DNA from: Deltaproteobacteria bacterium
GTDB lineage: Bacteria; UBA10199; JACPAL01; JACOUP01
Direction of reading: 5' to 3'
DNA length: 64,000 nucleotides
NCBI GenBank assembly: GCA_016177765.1
Contig: JACOUP010000008.1
Location: 641,165 to 705,164 of the forward strand
Made by a program: the position numbers and the translations under genes. Below the pieces are notes generated by a model. The model did not search any database. It was not told the DNA's origin and saw only the letters and a program-made list of their open reading frames with translations. Position 1 is the first letter of the stretch. Each line of letters begins with the position of its first letter. Below, one piece after another: positions 2,539-32,406 of the stretch.

Positions 2539-3012
2539 TTACTTCTCGTACTTTTTCAGCCTTCTTTCCAGCTCTTCGATCTTTTTGTGAAGATTACGGA
2601 CTTCCGACTGGACGGAAGGGATAGAAGAAACAGATTCAATCGTCGTTTTCAACTTCTCATCAATAAAATCTTTAATGGTCCGTTCCGCCTCATCCTTCAC
2701 GTGGGAAATGGAACTGACGCCGGTTTCGATCGAATTATGGACAAAGGAGGCGATCTTTTCACCGCCGCTTCCGATGATATTCTTGAGGGTTTCGATGGGT
2801 AAAAGACTCCTCTTCTTTTTTTCCTGTTCAAAAATAATCTGTGTCAGGGTTACCGAGGTCATGTCTTCGCCGTTCTTGTTGTCGACCACTTTGATATCTT
2901 CCCCCGCACGGATGAGCCCGGCAATATCGTCCAGGGTAACATAGCAACTCTGCGCCGTATCATAGAGCTTGCGGTTCTGGTACCGTTTGATGGTCCTCGT
3001 TTTTAAGGTCAT
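2539..3012 (-). CDS. phaR: Polyhydroxyalkanoate synthesis repressor PhaR.
   Basis: The N-terminus IKRYQNRKLYDTAQSCYVTLDDIAGLI...GEDMTSVTLTQIIFEQE matches the conserved PhaR DNA-binding domain nearly residue for residue. Confidence 0.8.
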   Translation of the reverse strand: MTLKTRTIKRYQNRKLYDTAQSCYVTLDDIAGLIRAGEDIKVVDNKNGEDMTSVTLTQIIFEQEKKKRSLLPIETLKNIIGSGGEKIASFVHNSIETGVSSISHVKDEAERTIKDFIDEKLKTTIESVSSIPSVQSEVRNLHKKIEELERRLKKYEK

Positions 3013-3461
3013 GAGGCGATTTTCTCCGCGCGCAGGGAAGAGGATTGCAGAGCCCCTTCCTCCCCCGCATTTTCCAAAACCTTCTTGATTGACAAAAGGA
3101 CATCCATCTTGAAGCGATTTTTTTCGGTGGCACTCTCTTGCGAGGTTCGCGCCAGCTCTCCATTGATAACACCAATAATGGAAGAAATGACCTTCTGGCG
3201 GATCTCGTGAAATTCCTCTTCCTCTTCATGCGGAATCTGGCTCACGACCCGATGAAGGACTCTTTGAAGGTTGGCAATCAAAAAACCTAAGGCCTGTTTA
3301 TTGTCTATCGTTGTCTGATTAACTGTCCGGCCGGCGAGCTCGAGCACCTCCCCGACAGCCAGAAGGATCTCCCGCGTTGCCTTTAAAACATGGGCCCTGG
3401 CGTTACCCAGTTTGGAAAAATTCCCCAAAAGAAGGGTCAGATCGAGGAGGGAGGCGGCCAT
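3009..3461 (-). CDS. Phasin-like, predicted all-helical protein.
   Basis: A 150-aa low-complexity amphipathic helical protein with no enzymatic motif. It is translationally coupled (4-nt overlap) to phaR. The phasin call is by context only. Confidence 0.35.
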   Translation of the reverse strand: MAASLLDLTLLLGNFSKLGNARAHVLKATREILLAVGEVLELAGRTVNQTTIDNKQALGFLIANLQRVLHRVVSQIPHEEEEEFHEIRQKVISSIIGVINGELARTSQESATEKNRFKMDVLLSIKKVLENAGEEGALQSSSLRAEKIAS

Positions 3462-3742: not shown

Positions 3743-6700
3743 TTATTGGTCTATCAGGGAACAGCCAGCTAGTGGCAGAGCGCCTCCTGAACCAGGGTTT
3801 CCTCCAGAACCTGTTGTGGAACCTTCATTATCATTGGCACCACTGGTAGTATCACCGGCAGGGGCCGATTGGTCCGGCTCCGGTTTTTTGGGCTCCTCAG
3901 GGATTCCCGGCCCTGGATTTTCCCCATCCTTGACGCAATCCCCCTGGGTATCCCCTTGGGCCAAATGGGCTTCCACGGCGGCCGAAGCGACGCAAATTTC
4001 GTGTTGTTGTGGCCTCCCTGCCAAGTGGCAAAGGGTAACCTTCCCCTCTTTGCAGACCGGTTTTCCGCTCCCTTTATCCTCGTGATTACAGGGATCCCCC
4101 TCGTTGTCCTGTAGTGAACCGTCGGCGCAATCGTTGTGGTTGCAAACGTCCCCGACGGCGTCCTCGAGTGAAAGATCGGGGCAATCGTTAGGAACACAGG
4201 CATCGCCGACCGCATCCCCCGGCGAACCGTCAAAACAGTCTTCATGATTGCAAACATCCCCAGCCCCATCCTGAAGCGAACCGTCGGCGCAATCATTGTG
4301 GAGACAAGGATCCCCCAGATTGTCGCGCAATGTGAAGTCGGAACAGTCGGAATGATTGCAGGCATCCCCCACGGTATCGCGCAAACTCAAGTCGGGACAG
4401 TCATCGTGGTTACAAGGGTCTCCCACTTCATCATTCGGTTCGAAGGGACAGGAGTCTGACTCGTCGGCCACGCCATCCGCATCCTCGTCATGATTGCAGG
4501 GATCGCTGACAAGGTCGTACGGGGTCCCGTTCGGACAGTCACTATGATTACAGGGATCCCCCTCGTTATCCTGTAGCGAACCATCAACACAATCCGTATG
4601 ATTACAGGGCTCGCCGACCGCATCCTGCAATGAGAGGTCGGCACAATCGTTGTGGACACAGGCCTCCCCTGTTGCATCGACCGGGGAACCATCGGCACAA
4701 TCCCCATGATTACAGGGCTCGCCGGCAACATCTTGCAGGGAACCGTCGGCACAATCGTTATGCAGGCAGGAATCTCCGGTGCTATCCTGGGCAGAACCGT
4801 CGGCACAATCATTGTGATCGCAAACATTACCCGCGGTATCCTGTTCCGAGAAATCAGGACAATCATTGTGAATACAAGGATCTCCTAACGGGTCTTCCAG
4901 AGAGAGGTCGGCGCAATCATTATGAACGCAGGAATCCCCAACCCCGTCCTGCCAGGAACCATCCTCACAATCGTCGTGATTACACGCATCACCCACACTA
5001 TCTTGTGAAGAACGATCGGCACAGTCGTTTGGATTGCAGGGATCACCGATCCCATCATCGGCTATAAAAGGGCAGGAATCATCGCTGTCGGCGATGCCAT
5101 CGTTATCTTCGTCATGATCGCAGACCTCCCCCACACCATCTTGTGCCGACCGATCAGAACAGTCGTTGTGATTGCAGGCGTCCCCCACAGAGTCGCGCGT
5201 TGAGAGATCAGAGCAATCATTGTGGTTGCAAGGATCCCCCACGGCGTCATTCAGATCAAACGGGCAGGCATCCGAAATGTCCGGAGCCCCATCATTGTCG
5301 TCATCCGGCTCGCAAACATCGCCGTAGGGATCGCCATCAAAATTGGCCTGATCGGGATTCGGCTGTAACAGGCAATTATCTTGATCAAACGGAACCTCAT
5401 CCCCGTCTCCGTCATAGTCTGCCGGGAGATCGCTCAAGTTCAGGATCTGTCCGGTGTCGGTCAAGACAAAGATAAGGTTGGCGCTCCCGGCAGACCATGG
5501 ATCAGGCAGGGCTCCGGTTAAAGTCGTACCATTGATGTTCAAAGAACGGTGGATTATCGCCTGATCCCCGTCACGAGAAGCGGCCCAATCGCTTTCACCG
5601 GCGCTGGCATAAACCTTATGGTAGGAGGCATTCATCTGATAAATGCCGGGCGACACACCCTCAAAGAGCACCGGGAAGCCACTCCGCCCGTCATTCCACC
5701 ATTCATCCGACGACGACATATCGGAAATAACGGAAAGCACTGGCCGGTCGGAGGTCACGTAGATATCAAATGTTCCTGGGTTGGCCCCTGGATAGACCAT
5801 TGGCACCGCCGGTTGAACAGGGAGGGAGGTGGCATCCAGCACCCGTCCATCCGGCATCACCATCACCATCAAATGCTGATGGCCCGAATCATCCATCAGA
5901 GGATGCGTCAACGGAACCCCATTGGCCGAAAGCCCCCAGAGAATGGTCTGATTATCGGTCATCCAACCGGATTCCGGACAGCTCCCCTCCTCGTTGGAAC
6001 AGGCCGACACCCGATAGAGTCCCGGCGGGACGTTATCAAAGACCGCCTCCGGGCCGGAGTGGTACTCGGCCGCCTCCCACCAAACCGGTCCATGCATTTC
6101 AGAGATAGCGAAGCTGAGCGACTTCTCACCGGTGATCACGACCCGCAGCGTCCCTGGGGTACTCCCTTGAACAGTGTCCACGACGCCATCCTGGTTCAGA
6201 TCGGGGGGGACCGAAGAGGCGTCATGCGGGTTTGTCGCAAAATAAATCTCCGTGAAGTCATAAAAACCGTCATTGTCATCATCCCAGTCGACATTGTCCC
6301 CCAAACCGTCCCCATCGGTATCGACCGATTCGTTCGGGTCAAGTGGGAATTGATCGGAGTTATCCGCCACACCATCTCCATCTTCATCATGGTTGCAGGG
6401 ATCACCAATCCCATCCTGGGTCGAGAGATCGGCACAGTCGTTATGATTACAGGCATCACCAATCGCATCACGCACTGAAAGGTCGGCACAGTCATTGTGA
6501 TTACAGGCATCACCAACGGTATCGGGCATCGAACGATCGGCACAGTCGTTGTGGTTGCAGGCATCACCAATCGCATCCTGGGCTGAAAGATCAGAGCAAT
6601 CACCGTGATTACAGGCATCACCAATCGCATCCTGGGCTGAAAGATCAGAGCAATCACCGTGATTACAGGGCTCACCAACGGCATCTTGAGCCGAGAGATC

Positions 6701-7105
6701 AGAGCAGTCATTGTGGTTGCAGGCATCACCGATCCCATCCTGGGCCGAAAGATCGGCACAGTCATTGTGATTACAAGCATCACCAACGGTATCGGACATC
6801 GAACGATCGGCACAATCGTTGTGATTACAGGGATCACCAACATTATCGTTCGGGTCAAACGGGCAGGCGTCTTGAAGATCCGGAATGCCATCGCCATCGG
6901 TATCGAGCGTTGGCGGAATCGTCACGGTCTTCTGAAGACGATTCCCCATCGCATCGTAGGTGTAGGTCACGGTAATGCCGTTGCTGTAGGTGATTCCTGT
7001 AATCCGACCGAGATCGTCACGGGCATAAGAAAGCGTGGCCGCCTCTCCCCCATGCGGGTTCAGGAAAAGAAAAAACAGGGCCATGGCAAAAAATTTCTTC
7101 ATCAT
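3743..7105 (-). CDS. Secreted 1,120-aa repeat protein. It has a signal peptide, a single YD repeat, about 30 Asp/Cys-rich 18-aa repeats (thrombospondin type 3-like), a ~340-aa central beta-rich domain and a Cys-rich C-terminus.
   Basis: The N-terminus MMKKFFAMALFFLFLNPHGGEAA is a Sec signal. YTYDAMGNRL is a YD motif. The repeat consensus is D-x-x-G-D-x-C-N-H-N-D-C-x-D-x-S-x-x. The ATG lies 4 nt after the stop of the upstream RHS gene. Confidence 0.8.
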   Translation of the reverse strand: MMKKFFAMALFFLFLNPHGGEAATLSYARDDLGRITGITYSNGITVTYTYDAMGNRLQKTVTIPPTLDTDGDGIPDLQDACPFDPNDNVGDPCNHNDCADRSMSDTVGDACNHNDCADLSAQDGIGDACNHNDCSDLSAQDAVGEPCNHGDCSDLSAQDAIGDACNHGDCSDLSAQDAIGDACNHNDCADRSMPDTVGDACNHNDCADLSVRDAIGDACNHNDCADLSTQDGIGDPCNHDEDGDGVADNSDQFPLDPNESVDTDGDGLGDNVDWDDDNDGFYDFTEIYFATNPHDASSVPPDLNQDGVVDTVQGSTPGTLRVVITGEKSLSFAISEMHGPVWWEAAEYHSGPEAVFDNVPPGLYRVSACSNEEGSCPESGWMTDNQTILWGLSANGVPLTHPLMDDSGHQHLMVMVMPDGRVLDATSLPVQPAVPMVYPGANPGTFDIYVTSDRPVLSVISDMSSSDEWWNDGRSGFPVLFEGVSPGIYQMNASYHKVYASAGESDWAASRDGDQAIIHRSLNINGTTLTGALPDPWSAGSANLIFVLTDTGQILNLSDLPADYDGDGDEVPFDQDNCLLQPNPDQANFDGDPYGDVCEPDDDNDGAPDISDACPFDLNDAVGDPCNHNDCSDLSTRDSVGDACNHNDCSDRSAQDGVGEVCDHDEDNDGIADSDDSCPFIADDGIGDPCNPNDCADRSSQDSVGDACNHDDCEDGSWQDGVGDSCVHNDCADLSLEDPLGDPCIHNDCPDFSEQDTAGNVCDHNDCADGSAQDSTGDSCLHNDCADGSLQDVAGEPCNHGDCADGSPVDATGEACVHNDCADLSLQDAVGEPCNHTDCVDGSLQDNEGDPCNHSDCPNGTPYDLVSDPCNHDEDADGVADESDSCPFEPNDEVGDPCNHDDCPDLSLRDTVGDACNHSDCSDFTLRDNLGDPCLHNDCADGSLQDGAGDVCNHEDCFDGSPGDAVGDACVPNDCPDLSLEDAVGDVCNHNDCADGSLQDNEGDPCNHEDKGSGKPVCKEGKVTLCHLAGRPQQHEICVASAAVEAHLAQGDTQGDCVKDGENPGPGIPEEPKKPEPDQSAPAGDTTSGANDNEGSTTGSGGNPGSGGALPLAGCSLIDQ
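4080..5330 (-). repeat. Second coding array of the same 18-codon repeat, with about 22 units.
   Basis: The repeated CNH(N/G/D)DC(A/S/P)D(L/G/R)S peptide units and the matching DNA periodicity are visible. Confidence 0.8.
6340..6880 (-). repeat. First coding array of degenerate 54-bp (18-codon) repeats inside the 3743-7105 gene.
   Basis: Recurrent ...catcaccaa(t/c)cgcatc...gcacagtc(a/g)ttgtg(g/a)tt(a/g)cagg... units are visible in the DNA. The antisense frames stay open because the repeats are periodic. Confidence 0.85.
6560..6667 (-). repeat. A perfect 2x54-bp tandem duplication.
   Basis: The unit ggcatcaccaatcgcatcctgggctgaaagatcagagcaatcaccgtgattaca occurs twice back to back with 108/108 identity. 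Confidence 0.9.
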
Positions 7106-7109
7106 GAAC

Positions 7110-10100
7110 TCACTTGGCTCCTGAAGCCCTCCCTCCCCCTAAATCCGGGGTCGACCAAAGATTGTTAACCATCCTGTTAGCCGATGGGTTGACAACAAGA
7201 CTGCCATAAAATTCATTGGGGACAAACGGGGCGTTCCTGATCGTCCCGCCAGCCGCCTGAACCGTCGACTGGAAGCTCGGCGAGACCCCCTTGCCGTACT
7301 CCACATAATAATTCGGTACGATAGTTCCCGGATAACTGGTCTTCAATTGGGTATCGGAAAGATAGGACCCTGGTGTGGTCAGGATCTGGAGCTGTTTGCC
7401 GTCATGCCCTGAAGGGGCAGATTTTAAGGTGGAAGCCCCCGATTTGATCTCATAGAGGTCGATCGTCCCTCCCTGCAGAGATTGGGGATTCAAAGAATCA
7501 GGCTCATACCACCCCGGCTGACCAGGGGCATAAACCTTGTAACGGCCGTTAGTATTCGGTTCAAGACCCATATTATTCAATGTGCCCTCTTCAACATAAT
7601 TACCACGCGCCTTGGGATCACCAATCTTGATCTTGCTAGAGAGATATCCAGTCCCGCCTCCTATCACCGTACTCATTCCTATCGAGTTGTAATTGTAGTC
7701 AAACGGTTCTTGGACACCTGTAGCCATATTCAACGTCTGTGTTGAGGCATCACTCACACCCCCTCCCACAGCGCCGCCGACGATCACATTCCCCCCGGTG
7801 ACAAGAGTCGTCACACCACCGGCACAGCCGCCAATGGTGTTCCCCGCGTAAGTCTGCCAGCTGGATACGGAGGGTTCCCAATTCCAGATGCTTGTTGCTA
7901 TGTCGGCAACGCCGGTTCCAACGAACCCAAAGGCTCCTCCGACCGCACAAGCTCCAGCAATAGCCTCTACCACGCAACCATCCCAAAGGCAGTTTCCGGA
8001 GGGATCGATATTCTGAACCGGATCCCCCTTCCCATAGGCATAAAGATTCAAACCGGCGGAATATCCCAACGGATCCCTCGAAATAAACCGTCCGGCGACC
8101 GGATCATAGTAGCGGGCCCGCATGGAGTAGAGACCGGTCGGGTCATTCTGGACACCAAACTTTCCGACAAACTGGAATGGATTAGCGGTTGTCCCGGTTT
8201 TTCTGTTCGGTCGGCCTAGCTCGTCATAGAGGTACTGATCCGTCACCGTCCCGGAAGGGTCAGAGAGGGCGACCGTTGAACCAAGCGGGTCATACTGGTA
8301 GAATCGTACCTGCGATCCATCAGCACTGATCTGACTTGCCAGCCCCAGGCCATAAACATAATAATTCTGTATCGCACCGGCGCTATCCGCCTCCGCAACG
8401 ACATCAGGAAGCCCCCGGTTGTCATCAACCAGGAATTGCGTCGTCTCGCCATTTTGTGTGAGAGAGGTCCGGTTGCCGTCACCATCATAACCGAGGACCA
8501 CCGTCCCTGCAGCGCTGGTCACCTCACTCAACTGGTCTTTGGCATCGAAGGAATAGGAAATGCCGCCGCCAGAGATCAGATTCCCGTTCAAATCATAATC
8601 AAAATTGAGCGGACCCAGTGTCAGGAGTTCATTCTCCTCATTGTAGGTGGCGCCCACCTCCTCCGGGCTAATCCAGGGAGTCAGCGGTTCTTCCTTTTCA
8701 ACACGGGTCCGGCGGCCCAGTTGATCAAGCGTATAATGATAACTGGAAAGAACTGACCCATCGGCCTTGTCGTTGGTGAGATCGGTCAGGCGTGAGGTCT
8801 CATCGTAACCATAGGTTGTCGTCAATCCGTTGGGGAGGGTCACCTCGTTCAGCCGGCCGCCAGTGTCGTAGCGGTAATGAGTGACCTGATCCAGCCAATC
8901 AGTCACCTGCGTCAACTGACGTGAGGGATTGTAGACATACTGGACCGTATGGTCTCCCGGATAGGTGAGTTGGGTCAGGAGTCCGGTCCGGTCGTAGCCA
9001 TAACTGAGATTGAAACCCCTCGGGTCGACAAAGGAGGTGGGACGACCAGCGGCATCATAGGTATACCGAGCCGTTCCCAAGGAATCGGTCCGGGTCAAAC
9101 GGTGACCGTTGGCATCATAAGTAGAGTCGACCGTCGTCCCGTCAGCCAGATGGATGGTGGAAAGGTGTCCCGCGGTATTGTAATCATAAAGGGTCGTCTG
9201 CCCCTTGCCATCCACCATCCGACTCAAACGCCCGGCCAGATCATAAAAATACTGTTCCTCCTCGCCCAAGGTGTTGGTTTGGCCAGTCTTGCGACCCGAC
9301 GAATCGTAGGTGAAGGTCGTCTCATGGCTGGCGGCATTGGTCAGACGGGTCAGATGGCCAGTGCGATTGTAGGCAAAGGAGGTGGTCTGACCCATGGAGT
9401 CAATGAGTGATGTCAACCGGCCGAGGGGATCGTAAGAAAATTGAGTGACGTGTCCACCGGCATCTGTCATTTGTGTTAACAAACCACTGACCGGATCGTA
9501 CTGCCGCACTGTTCTATTTCCCAAGGGGTCGGTCGCCTCCGTCAGCCGACCCAGCAAATCATAACGAGTACTCCAGGTCTGACCGGAGGAGTCGGTTCGT
9601 GAGGTCACGTTCCCTTCCTGATCATAAACAAAACTACTGACCCGGCCGGAGGGATCGGTCATGGAAGAAAGATTCCCCGCCGCATCGTAGGTCATCCGGA
9701 GCGTCCGGTTCTCGGCATCGGTCACAGCAGTTTTTCTGTTCAAGGCATCATAGGTAAACGTGGTCTGGTTCCCCAACGGGTCCTGAATGGACTCCATAAA
9801 GTCGTTGGCGTTCCAGCGGAGCTCGATCGCATTGCCGTTTCTGTCAATGACCCGCGCTGGGTTCCCATTGGTGTCATATTCATAACGAACCACCGAGCCG
9901 TCCGGCGACGTCACTGAATTGAGCTGGTCGTCCGGATTATAGGCAAAGGTGGTGGTCTGGCCGAGTGGATTGGTCATGGTGGCGACACGATCGGCGCCAT
10001 CATAAGTCTGCCGTGTCACCCCTCCGGTCGGATCGGTCGTTGTGATCAATCGCCCCTGATTGTCGTATTCAAAAGTGGTTGTCTGGCCTTCCGGATCGGT

Positions 10101-13100
10101 AAAGGCAGTGGCCTGACCAAATTCGTTGTAGGTATAACGACTTTCAACCGTTTGCTCCCCAACAACCTCCCAAACACGTGTCAGATTCCCCTCGCTATCA
10201 TATTCCAGGTTCCGCTCATGACCGGTTGGTTCGACGGTCTTGACCAGATCATCGGTTTCCAGATTATATTCAAACCGGGTCACATTGCCAAGCGGATCAG
10301 TGAGGGAAACCAGGTTCCCCCGTGCATCGTAGGTGGAACTTAACCGGTTTCCTTTTCGGTCCGTCATCCCGGAACGGAGGCTATCAACATTGTATTCGTA
10401 CAGGATCGGACGGCCCAGCGGATCCTGGCTCTCCACAACCCTTAAAGAATCATCATAGACCTGACGGAGCATCTGACCGAGCGGGTCGGTGACCAAAACC
10501 CGCCCCGGCTGTCCGTCGACCTCGTACAAAATCTGCGTCCGGTGGACCCGGCCGTCTTCCTGGGCCACCACCCTGGAGAGATCATCGTAACTGTTCTTGA
10601 CCAACCTGTTGCCGCGTGGGTCGGTCACCTCCGTCATCTGATGGAGAGGGTCATACCGGTAGGTATAACTTCCGGACCGGACATCAGTGAAACCGGTCAG
10701 GTCCTCTCCTGTGTACCCGAATTGGACCGACCGGCCGGCAGGGTCGGTGACCGAGGCGATCTTGAACTCTTCGTCACTCGCGTAGGCGAAAACAAGGCTC
10801 CTGCCGGTGGAGCTGGTCACCTGTGTCAAACGATTCTTCAGATCGTAAGAGAGGGAGAGTCTATTGCCCTTCCGGTCAGTGACCTGATCCAGACGGCCGT
10901 TGGCCAAGAAGTGAAGGGTGGAATGGTCCTTGGTGGCCAGGGTGAAACCATTGTCATCATTCTTGATCAGTGAAGAAAAGATCCCGGGAGGAGACTGATA
11001 GGTCCCGTCACCGTTCGAGGCGTACGTCTCCGAACGACCATCCCCCCACCGGATCTGTACCGACCCATCCCCCCATTCGGTCGCCACAATATTATAGTTG
11101 TGCGTCCAGCCAAACCCAAGGGGCCCCACATATTTGTCCTGACTATTGTAGGTCCGGGCAAAATTGAGGCCAAATCCGCGCCCTGAAAGGAGCAGGTCTG
11201 TGTGATGGTAGGCGTAATTTCCCGTTGCCGTGTTGACGGGGTCGCTGACATTCTGGACCGTCGGACTCTTGTTGCCGAATTTTTCATTCGCCATAGAGCG
11301 ACAGATGGCGTCACAGTAAGGCGGCTGTTGGACGCTTAAGGTGACAGGAACCGTCGCGGTACCGTCGGATGGATCATTACTGCTGGCCACTTGAAGAACT
11401 GTATCTACGGTTGCCGCTGGTTGAAGGTCTGCGGTGTTAACCGTTACCTGAAGTTGATCGGTCTGGCCGGCCGCCAAGAGATGGGTTGACCGGACAAGAG
11501 TATCAGTTTCGCCGCCGTTTTTCACCACAGTCATCCATGGGGTTGGAGTTGTGGCACTCACGTTGTAGTAAAGTGGACCGGTCCCGGTATTGGTAACCGT
11601 CACCTGCTGGGTCTGGTTGACCGTTCCTTTCAAAACCGTGATCTGGATCGGACTCCCGGTGAAGACAAAATTAGCATTGTCATCCGGGTTGCAGACATCG
11701 TTGATCCCGTCATTCGTATAAAAGGGACATAAATCACTCCCATCCGTAATGCCGTCCCCATCTTCATCATGATTGCAGGCATCCCCATAAGAATCGCGCA
11801 GGGAGAGGTTGGGGCAATCGTTATGACTACAAACATCACCGGTATCATCCTCGGGCGAACCGTCGGCGCAATCACTGTGGTTGCAGGCATCCCCAACATT
11901 ATCCTGGAGCGAGAGGTCGGCGCAATCACTGTGGTTGCAAGGGGCACCAACCGTATCCGGATCGGCACAATCGCCATGATCACAGGGGTCTCCAGCCGCA
12001 TCCTGATTAGAACCATCAGGACAATCGTTATGCACGCAGGCATCCCCCCAGGAGTCGCGCGGGGAAAAATCCGGACAATCGTTATGCACACAAGCATCTC
12101 CAACGGAATCCCTTGCCGTAAAATCGCCGCAGTCGTTGTGGTTGCAGGGATCGCCAATCGAATCATCCGGATCAAAGGGGCAACTGTCGGCAGTGTCAAC
12201 ACGGCCATCGCCGTCTTCATTGTGGTTACAGGCATCGCCGATATTATCCTTGAGACTCCCATTGGGACAAACGTCACGGTTCACATTGATGAAGTGGCTA
12301 CCAGTGGCCCCGTTACTATCATAACAAATGATGCCGATCGAATTCCAACCCGGCACCAGTTGAACATCGGCGTTGAAGGAGGCGGAACCACCGGAAAGGG
12401 ACCGGCTACTGTTCCAACCAGCGGTGCTGTTTTGAACAAGCACCGAACTCAGGTTGCTGTTAGGGTCACTACAAGTCCCGTCGATTGTTACATACGGGGC
12501 TGTTGTTACCGTGCCATCCGATGGTGAAATGATCAGGGCTGTCGGGGGATTGTTGGGGGGTGATTCCGTCGTAAAGGCCCACCTCGTCCAATTACGACTT
12601 TGGGCCTCGCCGTCATACCCAAAAACCTGCCAATAGTAGGTGGTGTTATAGTTAAGGCTGATCCCGTTGGCCGAGGGTTGCCAGGCCGTCGCCGTGCTGT
12701 TGGTCCAACCGTTCATTAAAGGGGAACTGAAGTCGCTATTATCATCCAACTGGATATAGTAATTTACAATGCTGTCGCCCGCATCCGGATCACTACAGGC
12801 CCAATCCAGAGTTACCGATCGGCTGACACCGGTCGCCCCGTGGGAGGGAGAGGTCAGGGTACAGTCATTGGGGGGATTGTTTACAGCAGTCACAGTCAAC
12901 TGCAGATTGTAACTGGGGATCTGACCATCATTGCCATAGTCTTCAACTTTGACAAGATAGGTATCCGGATTTAATCGTCGCGTGATGCGCGAATAGTAGT
13001 TGCCTCCCCCGATGTCGTCATTTGTGGTAATGACACCGCCGGCGGCCTGTTCGAGGGTCAGGACCGTGTCGTAGCCGCTCGCCCCCGATGTCTCGATCGT

Positions 13101-14036
13101 GACATCCAAAGTTGTGTCGAGTCGGAACCAGATCCAGTCAACATCACCCGTCGGAACAATGCTGTGGGTTGTTGTCGTATTGAGAGACTGTGGTTTGGCC
13201 GTTAAGGAAGTATTGTCCGGCTCATACGAATCTTGGGGCAAGACCACATTGATCGAGGCCCAAACCGTTGAAGAACCACCAACCAATATTGTCGACCCCC
13301 CTGAAGTTTTTAACTGCCAGTCATCCCGGTAGGTCCCAGAAGTGGCCGGGGTCCGCATCGAAACACTAAAGACGACGCCGGAACCCGGATTCACGCTAAA
13401 TCCGATCGGGATATTATTAGTACTCGTGGACATCGAACCGCTGACGTAGCGGAGGTAATAGTTGCTCTGCCAGACGGTGGTCCCGTTATTGTAAATCGTC
13501 CACTGCTTGGTAAAATTGGTACTGGTATTAAGGGTAGTTCCGTCGGGATGGGATTCACCACCAAAAGAGGCTGAGGTGAGGTTGGGGACGAGGGAATAGT
13601 TCTGGACATAAGATGCCGGTGGGCCCACATACCTCGTGGTGCTCAGGGTGTTATAACCGCTGGCGCTCACACTCACAGGGTAGGTGTAGTTTGACGGCAA
13701 GGTCAGGGACCAGCTACCGGCCGAATTCGTCGTGGTCATCGCACCGTAGGGACAACTGTTGCCAAAACTAACCGAGGCCCCCGAAATACCAACGCCGCTT
13801 TGGGAGTTGGTTACCGCCCCCCCGATGGTCGACATCTGAACATTGGAACAGGTTAAGGTCTGCGCCTGGAGAGGGACATCTTGATACTCGGAGGAAGGGG
13901 GCAGAGCCGGGGTGGCACTGCCAACAACGGGAGTGGATTCTATCACCTCATCCGATTTTAAATCGAGGTTCTCAAGCCCTCCGCAGGAAGCGAGGAGGAG
14001 AAAAAGGGAGAGGAATAATAAAACCACTTTCCTCAT
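7110..14036 (-). CDS. Giant RHS/YD-repeat lipoprotein with teneurin/Tc-toxin-like architecture. Domain order: lipobox signal, carboxypeptidase-regulatory-like, Ig-like and FN3 domains, PPC domain, thrombospondin type 3-like repeats, RHS plug and YD shell, RHS core, and a ~290-aa uncharacterised C-terminal domain.
   Basis: The MRKVVLLFLSLFLLLASCGG lipobox is preceded by GGGGG 6 nt before ATG 14036. The ORF-track start at 14072 is TTG. The PPC motif (DWIWFRL...GNYYSRI...YNLQLTV), many YD repeats and the terminal core YYDPVAGRFISRDPLGYSAGLNLYAYGKGDPVQNIDPSGN are all present. The C-terminal domain that follows is Gly-zipper rich. Confidence 0.9.
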   Translation of the reverse strand: MRKVVLLFLSLFLLLASCGGLENLDLKSDEVIESTPVVGSATPALPPSSEYQDVPLQAQTLTCSNVQMSTIGGAVTNSQSGVGISGASVSFGNSCPYGAMTTTNSAGSWSLTLPSNYTYPVSVSASGYNTLSTTRYVGPPASYVQNYSLVPNLTSASFGGESHPDGTTLNTSTNFTKQWTIYNNGTTVWQSNYYLRYVSGSMSTSTNNIPIGFSVNPGSGVVFSVSMRTPATSGTYRDDWQLKTSGGSTILVGGSSTVWASINVVLPQDSYEPDNTSLTAKPQSLNTTTTHSIVPTGDVDWIWFRLDTTLDVTIETSGASGYDTVLTLEQAAGGVITTNDDIGGGNYYSRITRRLNPDTYLVKVEDYGNDGQIPSYNLQLTVTAVNNPPNDCTLTSPSHGATGVSRSVTLDWACSDPDAGDSIVNYYIQLDDNSDFSSPLMNGWTNSTATAWQPSANGISLNYNTTYYWQVFGYDGEAQSRNWTRWAFTTESPPNNPPTALIISPSDGTVTTAPYVTIDGTCSDPNSNLSSVLVQNSTAGWNSSRSLSGGSASFNADVQLVPGWNSIGIICYDSNGATGSHFINVNRDVCPNGSLKDNIGDACNHNEDGDGRVDTADSCPFDPDDSIGDPCNHNDCGDFTARDSVGDACVHNDCPDFSPRDSWGDACVHNDCPDGSNQDAAGDPCDHGDCADPDTVGAPCNHSDCADLSLQDNVGDACNHSDCADGSPEDDTGDVCSHNDCPNLSLRDSYGDACNHDEDGDGITDGSDLCPFYTNDGINDVCNPDDNANFVFTGSPIQITVLKGTVNQTQQVTVTNTGTGPLYYNVSATTPTPWMTVVKNGGETDTLVRSTHLLAAGQTDQLQVTVNTADLQPAATVDTVLQVASSNDPSDGTATVPVTLSVQQPPYCDAICRSMANEKFGNKSPTVQNVSDPVNTATGNYAYHHTDLLLSGRGFGLNFARTYNSQDKYVGPLGFGWTHNYNIVATEWGDGSVQIRWGDGRSETYASNGDGTYQSPPGIFSSLIKNDDNGFTLATKDHSTLHFLANGRLDQVTDRKGNRLSLSYDLKNRLTQVTSSTGRSLVFAYASDEEFKIASVTDPAGRSVQFGYTGEDLTGFTDVRSGSYTYRYDPLHQMTEVTDPRGNRLVKNSYDDLSRVVAQEDGRVHRTQILYEVDGQPGRVLVTDPLGQMLRQVYDDSLRVVESQDPLGRPILYEYNVDSLRSGMTDRKGNRLSSTYDARGNLVSLTDPLGNVTRFEYNLETDDLVKTVEPTGHERNLEYDSEGNLTRVWEVVGEQTVESRYTYNEFGQATAFTDPEGQTTTFEYDNQGRLITTTDPTGGVTRQTYDGADRVATMTNPLGQTTTFAYNPDDQLNSVTSPDGSVVRYEYDTNGNPARVIDRNGNAIELRWNANDFMESIQDPLGNQTTFTYDALNRKTAVTDAENRTLRMTYDAAGNLSSMTDPSGRVSSFVYDQEGNVTSRTDSSGQTWSTRYDLLGRLTEATDPLGNRTVRQYDPVSGLLTQMTDAGGHVTQFSYDPLGRLTSLIDSMGQTTSFAYNRTGHLTRLTNAASHETTFTYDSSGRKTGQTNTLGEEEQYFYDLAGRLSRMVDGKGQTTLYDYNTAGHLSTIHLADGTTVDSTYDANGHRLTRTDSLGTARYTYDAAGRPTSFVDPRGFNLSYGYDRTGLLTQLTYPGDHTVQYVYNPSRQLTQVTDWLDQVTHYRYDTGGRLNEVTLPNGLTTTYGYDETSRLTDLTNDKADGSVLSSYHYTLDQLGRRTRVEKEEPLTPWISPEEVGATYNEENELLTLGPLNFDYDLNGNLISGGGISYSFDAKDQLSEVTSAAGTVVLGYDGDGNRTSLTQNGETTQFLVDDNRGLPDVVAEADSAGAIQNYYVYGLGLASQISADGSQVRFYQYDPLGSTVALSDPSGTVTDQYLYDELGRPNRKTGTTANPFQFVGKFGVQNDPTGLYSMRARYYDPVAGRFISRDPLGYSAGLNLYAYGKGDPVQNIDPSGNCLWDGCVVEAIAGACAVGGAFGFVGTGVADIATSIWNWEPSVSSWQTYAGNTIGGCAGGVTTLVTGGNVIVGGAVGGGVSDASTQTLNMATGVQEPFDYNYNSIGMSTVIGGGTGYLSSKIKIGDPKARGNYVEEGTLNNMGLEPNTNGRYKVYAPGQPGWYEPDSLNPQSLQGGTIDLYEIKSGASTLKSAPSGHDGKQLQILTTPGSYLSDTQLKTSYPGTIVPNYYVEYGKGVSPSFQSTVQAAGGTIRNAPFVPNEFYGSLVVNPSANRMVNNLWSTPDLGGGRASGAK
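7113..7995 (-). other. Variable C-terminal, putative toxin/effector domain of the RHS protein.
   Basis: This ~293-aa region lies after the DPxG core boundary. It contains GxxxG-rich stretches (GGCAGGVTTLVTGGNVIVGGAVGGGVS) and matches no catalytic motif I recognise. Confidence 0.6.
11750..12260 (-). repeat. Thrombospondin type 3-like 18-codon repeat array inside the RHS gene.
   Basis: It carries the same D-x-C-N-H-N-D-C repeat family as the downstream gene, here about 9 units. Confidence 0.75.
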
Positions 14037-14111
14037 TAACAAGACCCCCGAGGCGACGGGTGCTTCACCCAAGGCCCGTGGAAGGAGCCTAAGTCAGAGA
14101 AGACACAGTGT

Positions 14112-18967: not shown

Positions 18968-19717
18968 CTAGACCCTCGGCAAAAACAGTTCCAGAAAGTG
19001 TGAGATGGCGGTCTTGGCGGAATTGGCGAATTTCCGGAAGCGGACAAGTTCAAAAATTTTTCCCGGTTCCTGAAGCAGGAACTGGACCGCCCTGATCGGA
19101 CTGATGGACAGATCGGGCCTCAAGAACTGTTCAAAATCGGGGAGCGCCTGCGACACCGGATCGAAAATCGCCCGGACCGCCAGAAACGGCAATTTTTTCC
19201 TGACCGCCCAACGGGCCACCTCGGCCGTTTCCATTTCCAAGGCCAGAACCTCAGCCCGCGTCCCCAAAAACGCCTTTTCGTGTGGTTTCGCAATAATCTT
19301 GTCGACGGTCAACAGAGAGCCCTGATGGTACGGCAGTTTTCCCGCCTCAGCCACTTCTTTGGCCAGATTGAGCCATTTTTGAGTGGATCGGGCCACGACC
19401 TCAACATCCGGATTCAGGACACGGACATCGGTCGCCAAGATGAGATCACCCGAGGTGATGGCCGGTTGAGTCGCCCCGGCACAACCGGTCGAAAGGAGCA
19501 GACTGGGGGCATACCGTTCAAAAAGGAATGAAAGCGCCTTGAAGGTATTCCCCCGCCCCATACCGGTCCGGACGAGGAGAATAGGAACCCGCTGAAACTC
19601 CCCTTCGACGATCGTCAATGGGGGTTGGTTCACGACATGCCGTGGAGTCACCCGCCCGGTAAATCCCTTTAGTTCATCACGCAGGGCGGCGATGATGGCG
19701 ATCGGCTGAGGCGTCAC
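18968..19717 (-). CDS. Nucleoside phosphorylase family protein, MTA/SAH nucleosidase- or futalosine hydrolase (MqnB)-like.
   Basis: IAIIAALRDELKG...STGCAGA...GDLILATDV follows the PNP_UDP_1 family pattern. Confidence 0.55.
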   Translation of the reverse strand: MTPQPIAIIAALRDELKGFTGRVTPRHVVNQPPLTIVEGEFQRVPILLVRTGMGRGNTFKALSFLFERYAPSLLLSTGCAGATQPAITSGDLILATDVRVLNPDVEVVARSTQKWLNLAKEVAEAGKLPYHQGSLLTVDKIIAKPHEKAFLGTRAEVLALEMETAEVARWAVRKKLPFLAVRAIFDPVSQALPDFEQFLRPDLSISPIRAVQFLLQEPGKIFELVRFRKFANSAKTAISHFLELFLPRV

Positions 19718-21288
19718 AAGACTCTCTGGTATTGTTCAATGGTCTGCTTCCAAACCGGCACACCGCAGTAACGATCCCCTTCGGGGCAATACGGGGTCTC
19801 CCCCGCCCTCTTTCGCAGATAGCAGGGGGCCAGGATATGCCCGGCAATCCGGGGATGGATCTCTTTGACCTGACTGATTTCATCGATGGTCGCAAAAAAG
19901 ATTTCCTCTTGGCTGTCGTAACAGGCCCGCGTCCGCCACTTATGGTGGAGATTCAAGAGATCCCCCGACTCCGTGAAGCGGATCGGAAAGGCGTTGGGCA
20001 GGAGGTAGAGCGCCTTTTCCGGTTCAACCCCGTCGTCCAGCAACCGATTGATCTCGGAAAAAAGACCACTCATTGTTTTTTCAAAAAGTTCCCGGGCCGG
20101 GTCAAACTCCTTAACCAGCATCGGGAGGAGATAATCGGGACGACCGGTGTAATGGGTCTTGAGGATCGGTCGCGAAGCGGGCGTCATCCGGTGGCGTTGG
20201 TCCTGAGAATCGGCGGTGTGGGAGATTTTCTTCTGAAAGGTATAATGCGGGTGCACCATCGCCCGGGAGAGTTTGCTCAAGCTGTTAATATTTAAGGTGT
20301 CGCCAAGGTAGGAATTTCGGGCCGGGTCCATCGCGAGGGTGATCGCCTCGTCATCGGAGAGTTTTTCGCGTGTCAGCCCAAAGAGCTGCCGGACCGACTG
20401 GGCCAGACTCTCTTCGGCATTTTTTTTATAGTCCACCAATTTAGAGACATGCCCTTCCAGTGATCGGTCAAACTCGTCGATAAAATTCTGCGAGGAGTTC
20501 AAACGATCGGTGGTTTGAAACTGTTCTAAAATTTTAAACTCCGGTGTCTCCTCCAGCGGCAGGGGGTCTTTCAAATCCTTTTCAAAATCAGGATCGATCT
20601 TTTTCACCTCCTCAACCATCCTCTCCACCACGTAACGCTGTTCTTCTGGCGTATCAAAGAGCTGGCAGAGGCGCCAGTAGCGGATCAGCGTCAAGGCGCT
20701 GACCGAATGATACATATAGGCATGGATCGCCACCGGCAGGAGGTAGCGGGCCACCTCGTACCCCCTTTTCTTCAGGGCGTTTTCGTATTTCCCTGCAACC
20801 TTTTCCCTCTGGGGAAAGATCTTGTAAAACCGACGCCGGATCTCCGGCAAAAGGATCTCAATCATCTGGTTGTATTTTTCCATAAGGCCGTCAACCACCG
20901 TCACATACCGCTCGGCCTGTTTTTCCGAAAGTCCAGGGATGGTGTAATGCCCACGGGCCACCTTCACATACCGCTGACTCACCTGTTCCGAATTATAATA
21001 AGGATGGCTGTGCAAAAAAGACCAGATGAACTGCCGGCTGATCTTGTCCAGGGCAAAGACAAAGGTGGCATGCTGGCGTGTCGTGAGGTGCCCGGCATGG
21101 AGGGTCGATTGGGCGATCTTGTCCCGCAACACTAATGCCTTTTCATCCTTGGTGACGTCGTCAAGGCTCACAATCCCCCTGGAGGAATAACAGGTCCGGG
21201 CGGTCGCCACCGCCAGGTTGTACGGTTGCTCAATCACCCCTTCAAGGGTCACCACCGGCGGTTCGGAAAGGAAGGGGGAATTTGTCAT
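19714..21288 (-). CDS. Divergent ThyX-fold (flavin-dependent thymidylate synthase-like) protein, 525 aa.
   Basis: GHLTTRQHATFVFAL...SRQFIWSFLHSHPYYNSEQVSQRY corresponds to the ThyX segment GHETPFEH.VFTF....ARQ..RHR.......S.RY, but RHR reads HSH. The ORF-track start (21543) would overlap the divergent neighbour. I re-derived the start at MTNSPFL (21288). Confidence 0.5.
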   Translation of the reverse strand: MTNSPFLSEPPVVTLEGVIEQPYNLAVATARTCYSSRGIVSLDDVTKDEKALVLRDKIAQSTLHAGHLTTRQHATFVFALDKISRQFIWSFLHSHPYYNSEQVSQRYVKVARGHYTIPGLSEKQAERYVTVVDGLMEKYNQMIEILLPEIRRRFYKIFPQREKVAGKYENALKKRGYEVARYLLPVAIHAYMYHSVSALTLIRYWRLCQLFDTPEEQRYVVERMVEEVKKIDPDFEKDLKDPLPLEETPEFKILEQFQTTDRLNSSQNFIDEFDRSLEGHVSKLVDYKKNAEESLAQSVRQLFGLTREKLSDDEAITLAMDPARNSYLGDTLNINSLSKLSRAMVHPHYTFQKKISHTADSQDQRHRMTPASRPILKTHYTGRPDYLLPMLVKEFDPARELFEKTMSGLFSEINRLLDDGVEPEKALYLLPNAFPIRFTESGDLLNLHHKWRTRACYDSQEEIFFATIDEISQVKEIHPRIAGHILAPCYLRKRAGETPYCPEGDRYCGVPVWKQTIEQYQRVL

Positions 21289-21399
21289 TGGGGTCGTAAT
21301 CCTAGTCTCGGCTACCGGGATTGTCCACCGGCTATTTTGATGGCAACTTTGCCCCTCAACTGCCGATAATAACGACATCTTTTGAGAAAGGGGTTTACC
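21289..21399. promoter_or_regulatory. Divergent intergenic region between the ThyX-like operon and the DUF4116 operon.
   Basis: This 111 nt lies between two re-derived start codons. It contains TTGATG and GATAAT hexamers, although their spacing is non-ideal. Confidence 0.25.
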
Positions 21400-22125
21400 A
21401 TGGGACTCCAGGGTTTTAAGGATGCTCAGATCCGACAAAAAGTGGAAGCCGCAATCCACCAGGTTTGCGGTGACCCTCACCAAAATTGGTGGTGTGACCC
21501 GGCGACCTACACCAATGCCAACCTCACCGAGGTTGCCAATCATCCGAATCTTTTCTGCTCTTCTGCCTACAAAGATAGCGGGAAGGGGCTCTGCGACATT
21601 TTAAAGGATGGAGATGGGGGAGATCAGGCGTCAGCGGTTGATGATATAATCCAAAGATGGGCCGGAGTCAGTCTCTACATCCAAGGCCTGAGGATCGGCA
21701 CAAGGATCGAGGCGTTCGGGCAGGCCTTTAAAAGCTACGCGGTCCAAATGGCTGATAAAAATTATAAAGCGGACCCTTCCCAAAAAATGAAATACCTTAA
21801 AATGATGGAGGCCTCTCGCCTCGAGATAGAGGCAATCTTAAACGGCCTCGATGCCCCCTTCGGAGAAGCCAGTGATGCGGCAGATTCCATGACCCAACAA
21901 TTCAGGGAGGCCAACCGACCGACCGGTGGTTCAACAGGCTGTCTGTTCCCCCCATTTGCCTCTCTTTTCCGATCGGTCCGGACAACCGCCCCTGATGAGG
22001 GGGTCTCTTTTGAACAGTTGCCGGCAATCGTCCGGAAGGGACTGGACCGACAGAAGGAACCCTTCGATGTCCTCTTGAGGGGAGAGATCCCGGTGCCGGC
22101 CGAGGTCAAAAAACCTGCCCCATGA
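21400..22125 (+). CDS. Hypothetical protein of 241 aa with no recognisable domain.
   Basis: A continuous ORF with AAAGGGG before ATG 21400. Its stop overlaps the next gene's start (ATGA), so the two are translationally coupled. Confidence 0.5.
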   Translation: MGLQGFKDAQIRQKVEAAIHQVCGDPHQNWWCDPATYTNANLTEVANHPNLFCSSAYKDSGKGLCDILKDGDGGDQASAVDDIIQRWAGVSLYIQGLRIGTRIEAFGQAFKSYAVQMADKNYKADPSQKMKYLKMMEASRLEIEAILNGLDAPFGEASDAADSMTQQFREANRPTGGSTGCLFPPFASLFRSVRTTAPDEGVSFEQLPAIVRKGLDRQKEPFDVLLRGEIPVPAEVKKPAP

Positions 22126-31598: not shown

Positions 31599-32306
31599 TT
31601 AACTCTTGGTGGCCCCCGGCATAACCTGGGCCTCTCCCTCAACGGCGCCGGTATCCTTTGGGACCTTCTTGCGGGAACGGCTCGTCAGTTCATTCCCCTC
31701 TTCCTTGTGAATGATAACCACCGCAATGGTGTCATCGATGCTGGCCGCGATCCTGCCGACAAACTGCCCTTCCGGATCAGCCTCCGTACAGGAACGACGG
31801 AAGGCGTTGCAAACCTCTTTTTCAAGGACGGAGACCTTCTCGCCGGCCATCTCTATCTTGGAAACCGAACCGCTCTCCTCCTCTCTTGCTCCCTCCCTGT
31901 TGCCAACAGCCCCGGATGAATCATCCTTGGTCGGATTCACAACCTTTTTATCCGGATCCCGCCGCTCCCGGGCATACGCCTCACGAACCAGGAATTGTTG
32001 CAAAAAGCCGCTTCCACCGGACCCCTCGTTGATCAGGAGGACCATCGAAGAGGCGGGGACCGCACCGGCCTCCCCCGTCATCGTAACGATCCCGTTTTCA
32101 TCGGGTGGCGAGAGGACCATCCGCCCCAAGACAGGGGCCGGCAGGGAGACCGGAGGGGCATCGGCGGCAGTACCACTGCTCGTCCCCCCTGAGACTTCAC
32201 CGGAAACGTCGTCGGCAGGCCCTCCACCGGGGGTGGTTCCCTGATTACAAGAGGCAAAACAAAGAAGGACTAGAAATAAACCAGCCTTCAACCGCCAGAA
32301 AGACAT
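31599..32306 (-). CDS. Putative lipoprotein.
   Basis: Signal peptide with lipobox LLCFASC, followed by a Gly/Ser/Thr-rich linker. Confidence 0.5.
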   Translation of the reverse strand: MSFWRLKAGLFLVLLCFASCNQGTTPGGGPADDVSGEVSGGTSSGTAADAPPVSLPAPVLGRMVLSPPDENGIVTMTGEAGAVPASSMVLLINEGSGGSGFLQQFLVREAYARERRDPDKKVVNPTKDDSSGAVGNREGAREEESGSVSKIEMAGEKVSVLEKEVCNAFRRSCTEADPEGQFVGRIAASIDDTIAVVIIHKEEGNELTSRSRKKVPKDTGAVEGEAQVMPGATKS

Positions 32307-32339
32307 AGAGGTAGTATACCCCTTTGATCCCCCCTTAAG

Positions 32340-32406
32340 GAAATTGTTTGTCTTTTAATATCAAAATAATATATAATTTATCATATAAATATATATTATA
32401 TCTTAT
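32340..32406 (+). promoter_or_regulatory. AT-rich promoter-like tract upstream of the kinase gene.
   Basis: This 67-nt stretch is almost entirely A/T (tatcaaaataatatataatttatcatataaatatatattatatcttat) in an otherwise GC-rich background and carries multiple TATAAT-like hexamers. Confidence 0.4.

Follow-up and report, generated by a model that had tools for sequence, protein, structure and literature searches.

A lipoprotein-type RHS protein with a predicted membrane-inserting C-terminal module and no neighbouring immunity gene

The stretch of DNA analysed here, called the window throughout, comprises 64,000 nucleotides of the Deltaproteobacteria bacterium contig JACOUP010000008.1 (positions 641,165 to 705,164) and contains a large gene for an RHS protein. 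The open reading frame (ORF) spans 7110..14072 on the minus strand and, read from the ATG at 14036, encodes 2,308 aa beginning with MRKVVLLFLSLFLLLASC. We found the product to be identical to MBI1909619.1, which forms a singleton cluster. On balance, it is best read as an RHS polymorphic toxin that takes the Sec/lipoprotein pathway and carries a membrane-inserting module in its C-terminal region (CT). A preliminary description, made from the sequence, had treated the ~290 aa behind the RHS core as one Gly-zipper domain; instead, they consist of a module shared with other proteins (CT 1-124) and an orphan tail of 170 aa. What this analysis adds is the split of the CT, a membrane-acting module family that usually comes with candidate membrane immunity ORFs, confirmation that an immunity gene is missing at the locus, and a recurrent YD-headed partner protein.

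The glycine-zipper module and the orphan tail

The 294-aa CT following ...NIDPSG (window 7113-7994; 30.3 kDa) had been described as matching no known toxin motif. This was upheld, in that Pfam and NCBIfam gave no match even at E=10 and searches of PADLOC and PHROGs with the CT and its parts returned nothing. Sequence searches of the PDB with the CT, the tail, a profile of the module, and the stretch of core plus module yielded nothing meaningful; the module profile had no solved relative there, its best match being ClyA (E 0.04). The GxxxG-rich stretch is confined to CT 1-124 (20% Gly, grand average of hydropathy (GRAVY) +0.42), and CT 125-294 is hydrophilic (GRAVY -0.6). When 1.84 billion cluster representatives were searched exhaustively with the CT (phmmer), we found, besides the RHS protein itself, 65 clusters (50% identity level; E 1e-10 to 1e-3), all of which match only CT ~10-130. 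The RHS core motif NP....D..G lies a few residues before the matched stretch in 56 of the 57 matches with enough upstream sequence (48 by regular expression, plus eight of the nine missed by the expression, after inspection); the exception is a frameshifted fragment. The alignment yielded the signature ..G.DD.I...G...G..GQ...D.....SSWQ.Y.G...GG..GG., of which the window module keeps the invariant G19, G55, G56 and G60 together with the near-invariant D31, S44 and Y49, at 31-42% identity to 41 relatives. A word-indexed database searched with a profile of the module alignment added little (eight fragments only), and across 49 CTs (the window and 48 relatives) there was no Pfam match over the module.

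AlphaFold2 (AF2), given the module alignment, modelled CT 7-121 as four helices (residues 7-38, 46-65, 70-91 and 102-121) at a pLDDT (predicted score in the local distance difference test) of 93-98 and left the tail unmodelled. [GAS]xxxGxxx[GAST] zippers are present in all four helices. A Foldseek search of this model against the PDB had no significant match; almost all of its weak fold neighbours are integral membrane or transmembrane (TM) helical proteins. Together with the 2-3-TM ORFs that accompany relatives of the module, the four-helix model and these fold matches support the earlier suggestion that the Gly-zipper part inserts into membranes, and the module is most likely a membrane-inserting unit.

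To place the module in its genomic contexts, we used a pattern scan of GTDB genomes (a subset of the module alignment), which gave 15 loci, and individual matches, which gave seven more. Of the 15 GTDB loci, 14 belong to Bacillota, Clostridia among them, and the remaining one to a gammaproteobacterium. The commonest form of CT is the module followed by a short conserved tail (G-R-x-S..AVFKSGLTKL.N.TA..MS.KV); the sequence past the matched stretch has a median length of 84 aa among relatives. Fourteen relatives that carry the module and a short tail have a small ORF with 2-3 predicted TM helices behind the toxin gene, directly in 13 of them, at a distance of 7-150 nt where measured. Such ORFs occur at L008, L009, L011-L017, L021, L022, L023, L024 and L004. 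At L007, a homologous TM ORF lies ~1.7 kb downstream, beyond an intervening 430-aa ORF. These TM ORFs are 81-184 aa long (that of L004 is a 76-aa partial ORF at a contig end), and consist of 2-3 N-terminal TM helices and a small soluble domain without any Pfam match. By sequence they make up at least three families (L008/L016; L009/13/14/15; L007/12/17/21); the N-termini of those at L022, L023, L024 and L004, and of the second ORF after the toxin gene of L005, look alike by eye. They are probably uncurated membrane immunity proteins. The same layout, a depolarising toxin with a polytopic membrane immunity protein, is known from Tse5/Tsi5, TspA/TsaI and EsxX/ExiCD (PMC12744356, PMC10684867).

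A minority of relatives carry an enzyme domain after the module. GIY-YIG tails were found in P0009 (locus L010, with ORFs for leucine-rich and HEAT repeats downstream; Pfam E 9e-6) and P0062, a PT-HINT domain and a further domain in P0033, and an ESKFG-type tail in P0045, P0048 and P0052; at L005, the gene with the ESKFG tail is followed by a DUF4304-like ORF and two small TM ORFs. The module also stands behind LXG-like N-termini of RHS proteins (P0030, P0039, P0063, P0065) and, at L020, in a non-RHS protein adjoining WXG100 genes. The preliminary description had named the same CT on different N-termini as the signature of a polymorphic toxin. Since the module recurs with other tails and other N-termini (65 clusters; RHS, LXG-type and type VII secretion system (T7SS)/WXG contexts), it shows this signature; the tail, which occurs nowhere else, does not. 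Because the module precedes a nuclease in some members, it may also act as a membrane-entry device, as with Tde1, in which a glycine zipper drives translocation of the effector (PMC10240207). Most likely the module is the toxic principle in most members and lies upstream of cytoplasm-acting cargo in some; we take it to be the conserved element of a large uncurated family and probably its toxic principle, by pore formation or depolarisation.

The tail is a different matter. Exhaustive phmmer against the same 1.84 billion representatives returned only the RHS protein itself and P0017, and the latter was rejected as a chance match: it crosses the boundary of two PPC-like repeats, and its E-value sums nine near-identical repeats of at most 33 bits each. 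Searches with the tail of the word-indexed database (E<=10), of Joint Genome Institute (JGI) metagenomes, and of Pfam, NCBIfam, PADLOC and PHROGs, including Tox-REase families at E<=10, gave nothing. Tail residues 80-149 resemble an Ig-lambda V domain among PDB sequences (weak, E 0.4), and a PPC or Ig beta-sandwich for the tail is a lead only.

By eye, the first half of the tail contains a string reminiscent of PD-(D/E)xK nucleases (GNYVEEG ... WYEPDSL ... IDLYEIKSG ... KQLQ). This resemblance, which stays at the motif level, suggests an alternative in which the module would serve for entry or translocation only, and the tail would be a divergent PD-(D/E)xK-type nuclease toxin acting in the target cytoplasm, with a soluble immunity protein encoded elsewhere in the genome. 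The motifs stand in the right order and spacing, the profile of ESKFG tails aligns on the (D/E)xK strand 'GTIDLYEIKSGASTL', nuclease tails (GIY-YIG, PT-HINT) occur behind the same module in relatives, and Tde1 provides a precedent (PMC10240207). However, the ESKFG alignment is non-significant (E 0.03-0.1 with one target; hhalign probability 1%), the empty database searches extend to Tox-REase, single-sequence AF2 found no fold (pLDDT 31), the second half leans weakly towards the Ig V domain, the composition is rich in Gly, Pro, Asn and Ser, and the 64 kb hold no immunity candidate. We consider this account unlikely, if the strongest of the alternatives to a toxin whose active part is the module.

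The missing immunity gene and the downstream repeat gene

The preliminary description had noted that no immunity gene follows the RHS gene, and inspection of neighbouring ORFs, a scan for TM helices and tblastn all bear this out. No small ORF between or after the RHS gene and the downstream TSP3 (thrombospondin type 3)-repeat gene fits such a role, and near the locus there are no ORFs with at least two TM helices or of an immunity family, except spurious frames inside the repeats. An antisense or overlapping immunity gene was rejected as a candidate, as only such repeat-frame ORFs were found. The sole small polytopic ORFs of the window lie more than 20 kb from the RHS gene, and 16 immunity candidates of relatives gave no tblastn match to the window. 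The absence is shared by L003, where the RHS gene encodes P0004, a distant relative with a Sec signal whose CT is the module and a short tail: no TM ORF adjoins that gene. By contrast, the relatives with a Sec signal at L004, L022, L023 and L024 have a 2-TM ORF downstream, so that the missing immunity gene is specific to the window and L003 and does not extend to the whole class. Possible reasons for the absence are an immunity gene elsewhere in the genome, a non-kin target, or protection of the producer by its outer membrane and by encapsulation.

A diversity-generating retroelement adjoins the RHS gene of L003 (932-1086, 1313-1467 and 4289-4443), with bAvd, a reverse transcriptase and an Lcl_C/DUF1566 target. 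Its template repeat is 155 nt long, a second variable repeat lies within the RHS gene (P0004 aa ~96-148, in an N-terminal lectin-like domain), and mismatches in the variable repeats fall almost only at template adenines. A DUF1566 domain targeted by such a retroelement and linked to an rhs toxin is mentioned in PMC6642488.

A toxin aimed at non-kin, for instance monoderm bacteria or eukaryotic cells, is a further alternative. The producer, shielded by its outer membrane and by encapsulation of the CT, would then need no immunity protein. In keeping with this, the module family is found mostly in Bacillota (14 of the 15 GTDB loci), whose cytoplasmic membrane can be reached directly; an adjoining TM ORF is lacking at the window and at L003, where both RHS genes carry a Sec signal; and encapsulated Tse5-CT needs no cytoplasmic immunity (PMC12744356). 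On the other hand, L004, L022, L023 and L024 combine a Sec signal with a downstream 2-TM ORF, diderm or monoderm status is not established for most of the source organisms, and immunity may be encoded outside the 64-kb window. A non-kin target is, in our judgement, distinctly improbable as the explanation.

The gene that follows was described as starting 4 nt past the stop of the RHS gene and as encoding a 1,120-aa secreted repeat protein, and the junction (TGA-gttc-ATG, with AGGAG ~12 nt before the ATG), the signal peptide and the TSP_3 match agree with this. The protein consists of one YD repeat, which is an ordinary one, followed by long TSP3/CNHNDC arrays. Between the RHS gene and its neighbour, the repeat blocks share only 65-72% DNA identity, and their duplication is accordingly old. 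Its C-terminus (window 3743-3990, minus strand) comprises a Cys/His motif (KVTLCH...EAHLAQGDTQGDC), a low-complexity stretch of Gly, Ser and Pro, and a final ...PLAGCSLIDQ before the stop; the GC(S) there resembles the start of a MYXO-CTERM-type signal, but no TM helix comes after it. The start of tatA lies ~50 nt downstream of the gene.

Three unrelated loci, namely the window, L003 and L026/L027, have downstream of their Sec-type RHS gene a gene for a secreted repeat protein that begins with a signal peptide and one or two YD repeats. At L003 (8528-10048), the YD-headed secreted protein has TSP3/NIDO domains and its gene comes right after the RHS gene; at L026/L027 (L026:9001-12720), a YD-headed PPC-like repeat protein follows a probable-lipoprotein RHS gene and a 116-aa ORF. 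At L004 (2794-3642) and L005 (3667-5004), a TSP3 protein with a terminal YD-like repeat is encoded immediately upstream of the RHS gene, and at L010 a TSP3 motif lies inside the RHS protein. The partner is possibly a surface accessory of the RHS protein, and we hypothesise that it docks on, or is tethered to, the shell by beta-strand addition.

The least probable of the alternatives is that the RHS protein works chiefly in surface adhesion or cell-cell interaction, using its shell as teneurins do, with a CT that is not an antibacterial toxin: such a role would explain the missing immunity gene and would suit the many adhesin-type domains, the TSP3 repeats, the co-transcribed TSP3-repeat protein and the enrichment of teneurin-like proteins (TLPs) in social bacteria (PMC13018210), but the autoprotease core is intact, the module family is otherwise paired with immunity-type ORFs and swapped with nucleases, and the C-terminal domains (CTDs) of bacterial TLPs assayed to date are toxic (PMC13018210).

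Architecture of the RHS protein and comparison with known systems

Domains in the RHS protein were called with Pfam and NCBIfam, and the features are collected in the table. A complete RHS lipoprotein with adhesin-type N-terminal domains, a repeat block and a YD shell, as first described, was recovered, with the lipobox read by eye, as was the canonical DPxG core (IDPSG) at the end of the shell. Among the N-terminal domains, the NBR1-type Ig domain (N_BRCA1_IG, aa 164-264) is well supported (Pfam E 3.6e-18; PDB 4ole, NBR1, E 5e-10); the CarboxypepD_reg-like (aa 70-134), PPC-like, Ig-like (aa 406-588) and BACON-like (BACON_2, aa 806-884) domains are under the curated Pfam cut-offs. Pfam places the thrombospondin-type-3 repeats at aa ~600-780. 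RHS_repeat matches the shell in 23 stretches, and the solved structures that match it best in a PDB search are T6SS (type VI secretion system)-type Rhs shells (E 5e-62 to 5e-50). TIGR03696 (Rhs_assc_core) aligns over positions 1-75 of its 76. The Asp of RDPLG and that of IDPSG lie 23 residues apart, as do the catalytic D1141 and D1164 of Tse5 (PMC10684867), and by its motif the autoprotease of the core appears intact, from which we infer cleavage of the CT. A C-terminal sorting signal (MYXO-CTERM, PEP-CTERM or a type IX secretion CTD) was rejected for the RHS CT, as a terminal TM helix is absent and Pfam is empty.

Features of the RHS gene and of the gene downstream (window coordinates)
Feature	Position	Strand	Basis
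Secreted 1,120-aa TSP3/CNHNDC-repeat protein, translationally coupled	3743..7105	-	TSP_3 E 1.5e-13, 4-nt gap, AGGAG
Signal peptide and N-terminal YD repeat (aa 1-62) of the downstream protein	6920..7105	-	RHS_repeat aa 30-60, E 5.7e-7
CT tail, orphan hydrophilic 170-aa region (CT aa 125-294)	7113..7622	-	No homologue
CT module, four-helix glycine-zipper, predicted membrane-inserting (CT aa 1-124)	7623..7994	-	
RHS-associated core with aspartyl autoprotease motif (aa 1937-2014)	7995..8228	-	TIGR03696 E 1.4e-19
YD/RHS repeat shell (aa ~1006-1936)	8229..11021	-	RHS_repeat E 1e-122, YD_repeat_2x E 1.6e-105
DUF6531 plug (aa 932-1005)	11022..11243	-	Pfam E 1.9e-19
TSP3/CNHNDC repeat block (aa ~590-790)	11667..12269	-	Pfam TSP_3 E 1.5e-6
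Adhesin-type domains (aa 70-588; CarboxypepD_reg-like, NBR1-type Ig, PPC-like, Ig-like)	12273..13829	-	Pfam
Signal peptide and lipobox (MRKVVLLFLSLFLLLAS before C; Cys18)	13983..14036	-	Translation, motif LLASC read by eye

The closest comparison is with Tse5 (PA2684) of Pseudomonas aeruginosa, an Rhs protein whose delivered CT forms pores and depolarises membranes (PMC10684867). The two share a homologous Rhs shell (PDB 8cp6, E 5e-50) and the Asp spacing and, by analogy for the window protein, a hydrophobic or amphipathic helical CT that is released to insert in membranes; Tse5 has a membrane immunity protein (Tsi5), and candidates for such proteins stand beside the relatives of the window module. 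Unlike Tse5, which bears PAAR and is delivered by the T6SS, the window protein has a lipoprotein signal and no PAAR. The CTs have no detectable sequence similarity, and that of the window is twice as large, with the extra hydrophilic tail and no Tsi5-like gene. No match to PAAR, VgrG or DUF4150 was found in the RHS protein, nor to VgrG or Eag in the flanking genes checked. In the absence of PAAR, VgrG and Eag, the protein is not a T6SS Rhs effector.

The preliminary description had called the protein teneurin/Tc-like, a label that did not hold up. TLPs combine an FN-plug, an NHL propeller and a YD shell, with CTDs that average ~15 kDa and that nearly always have an immunity gene immediately behind them (PMC13018210). 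They have polymorphic CTs, variable N-terminal adhesion domains and, in Myxococcota and Thermodesulfobacteriota, signals for signal peptidase II (SPII) (PMC13018210, Raoelijaona et al. 2026); the CTD of BiTLP (B. inaquosorum teneurin-like protein) is hydrophobic and permeabilises membranes from the periplasmic side (PMC13018210). The window protein resembles them in its YD shell, in the SPII lipoprotein signal of the Gram-negative members (LLAS/C, by eye) and in its variable adhesion domains. An NHL propeller was not found by Pfam, nor would one fit into the space that separates DUF6531 from the first YD repeats. TEN_YD-shell scores 52.7 bits against a Pfam cut-off of 50, and the shell matches T6SS-type Rhs better (E 5e-62) than it does the solved TLP (2e-45) and metazoan teneurins (~1e-10). 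The RHS protein is not teneurin-like in the sense of PMC13018210. Nor is it a Tc toxin: a TcB-type SpvB/propeller and a TcA translocator are absent from the protein and from the neighbours checked, and the match to structures of TcC and TcB-TcC fusions (E 1e-7 to 1e-10) is confined to the core, the final ~110 residues.

Further systems share single aspects. SGS1 of Aedes aegypti has an Rhs/YD shell, an autoprotease site, ~230 aa of helices and then Tox-SGS; the shell keeps these helices within it, and they are predicted to turn transmembrane (PMC9935623). The order of parts after the autoprotease site, helices and then a further C-terminal domain, is alike. SGS1 differs in being a eukaryotic protein of bacterial descent with two beta-propellers, the window's helical region has no detectable similarity to it, and the window tail has no Tox-SGS match. 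An SGS1 alignment that seemingly extended into the module vanished when the module was searched alone. The T7SS toxins EsxX, TelE and TspA have GxxxG-rich membrane-inserting helices and polytopic membrane immunity, which on the window's side is found with the module's relatives; the zipper of Tde1 carries a DNase across a membrane; and the module itself also stands behind LXG-like N-termini. EsxX, TelE, TspA and Tde1 differ in not being RHS-encapsulated, and the window in having no immunity gene. From the outer membrane exchange lipoprotein toxins of the SitA type in myxobacteria, the lipobox is the only shared feature, and a SitI-like gene is absent here.

WapA of Bacillus subtilis is a Sec-exported, wall-anchored RHS contact-dependent toxin with a tRNase CT and with the immunity gene WapI downstream. 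The window protein is likewise a Sec-dependent surface RHS protein with a polymorphic CT and no T6SS, whereas WapA belongs to a monoderm host and has wall-binding repeats rather than a lipid anchor.

Around the locus, priA, def, fmt and rpe lie upstream of the RHS gene, and past the TSP3 gene come tatA, a 150-aa ORF, phaR and two ArsA-like ATPases. The 150-aa ORF is non-membrane, has no family match and overlaps the start of phaR by 4 nt; the ArsA-like P-loop ATPases form a tandem downstream of phaR (527-2529 and 2539-3461, both minus strand). Elsewhere in the window, the larger ORFs that were checked are for the most part chromosomal housekeeping genes (metH, ilvD, PEP carboxylase, a Ser/Thr kinase and others), together with a DUF4116 repeat protein and a 719-aa ORF without Pfam match. 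The DUF4116 protein (22122-25091, plus strand; 989 aa, largely repeats, Pfam E 5e-36) adjoins an ORF of 241-247 aa with no match on record. A ThyX-type thymidylate synthase ORF (19714-21543, minus strand) is unusually long at 609 aa, against 524 aa in the public gene call of L001, and contains two Thy1 stretches, an apparent duplication. No components of T6SS, Tc or contact-dependent inhibition systems were seen among those of the window's ORFs that were checked.

Proposed action and significance

In the proposed mechanism, the RHS protein would be exported and lipid-anchored through Cys18, presumably at the cell surface, as the lipobox suggests. The Ig-like, PPC-like and TSP3 domains at its N-terminus would hold the YD shell off the cell and bind the target. 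The CT would be enclosed by the shell and cut after ...IDPSG by the aspartyl autoprotease of the RHS core, as its motif implies, and the released four-helix glycine-zipper module (CT 1-124) would insert in the cytoplasmic membrane of the target. In some members of the family, the order of domains suggests that the module would also bring nuclease cargo through the membrane. The window version would differ in the unique 170-aa hydrophilic tail, in having no immunity gene in cis and in its operon partner, the secreted YD-headed TSP3 protein.

Several points weigh against a membrane-active toxin of this kind. Toxicity, cleavage and surface exposure are all inferred. An immunity gene is absent near the locus, although the module alone is predicted to be dangerous to siblings. 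The module helices are marginally hydrophobic, with a single 19-residue window at a Kyte-Doolittle value of 1.64, and a sequence relation of the module to Tse5-CT, the BiTLP CTD or the SGS1 helices is undetectable, so that comparison with these is by analogy only. Searches back no function for the tail. Finally, Rhs shells of like length have cavities of ~32,000-35,000 cubic angstroms and hold cargo fragments of 15-16 kDa (PMC10684867); as the 30.3-kDa CT is about twice that size, the shell may not hold all of it, and the CT is either packed very tightly and unfolded or partly outside the shell, perhaps with its tail.

A wider proposal, speculative and offered as a long shot, is that the locus represents a class of surface RHS weapons in diderms that do without immunity, in which a module derived from Bacillota is turned against foreign cells (monoderms or eukaryotes, for example) and the YD-headed partner docks on the shell, its N-terminal YD hairpin extending the beta-spiral, and so tethers or presents the toxin. 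The missing immunity gene and the partner gene are leads, not findings.

RHS toxins are a major source of new toxin and delivery domains, and the locus leaves their basic picture unchanged. The combination of an orphan 18-kDa tail with no immunity gene makes the RHS protein a test case for how surface-displayed membrane toxins avoid fratricide, and the YD-headed repeat protein beside Sec-type RHS genes is a lead to an accessory factor. The family of glycine-zipper modules behind the RHS core is large and is not modelled by Pfam 2025; hundreds of RHS C-termini now called 'hypothetical', together with their membrane immunity genes, would gain an annotation from a profile of the module.

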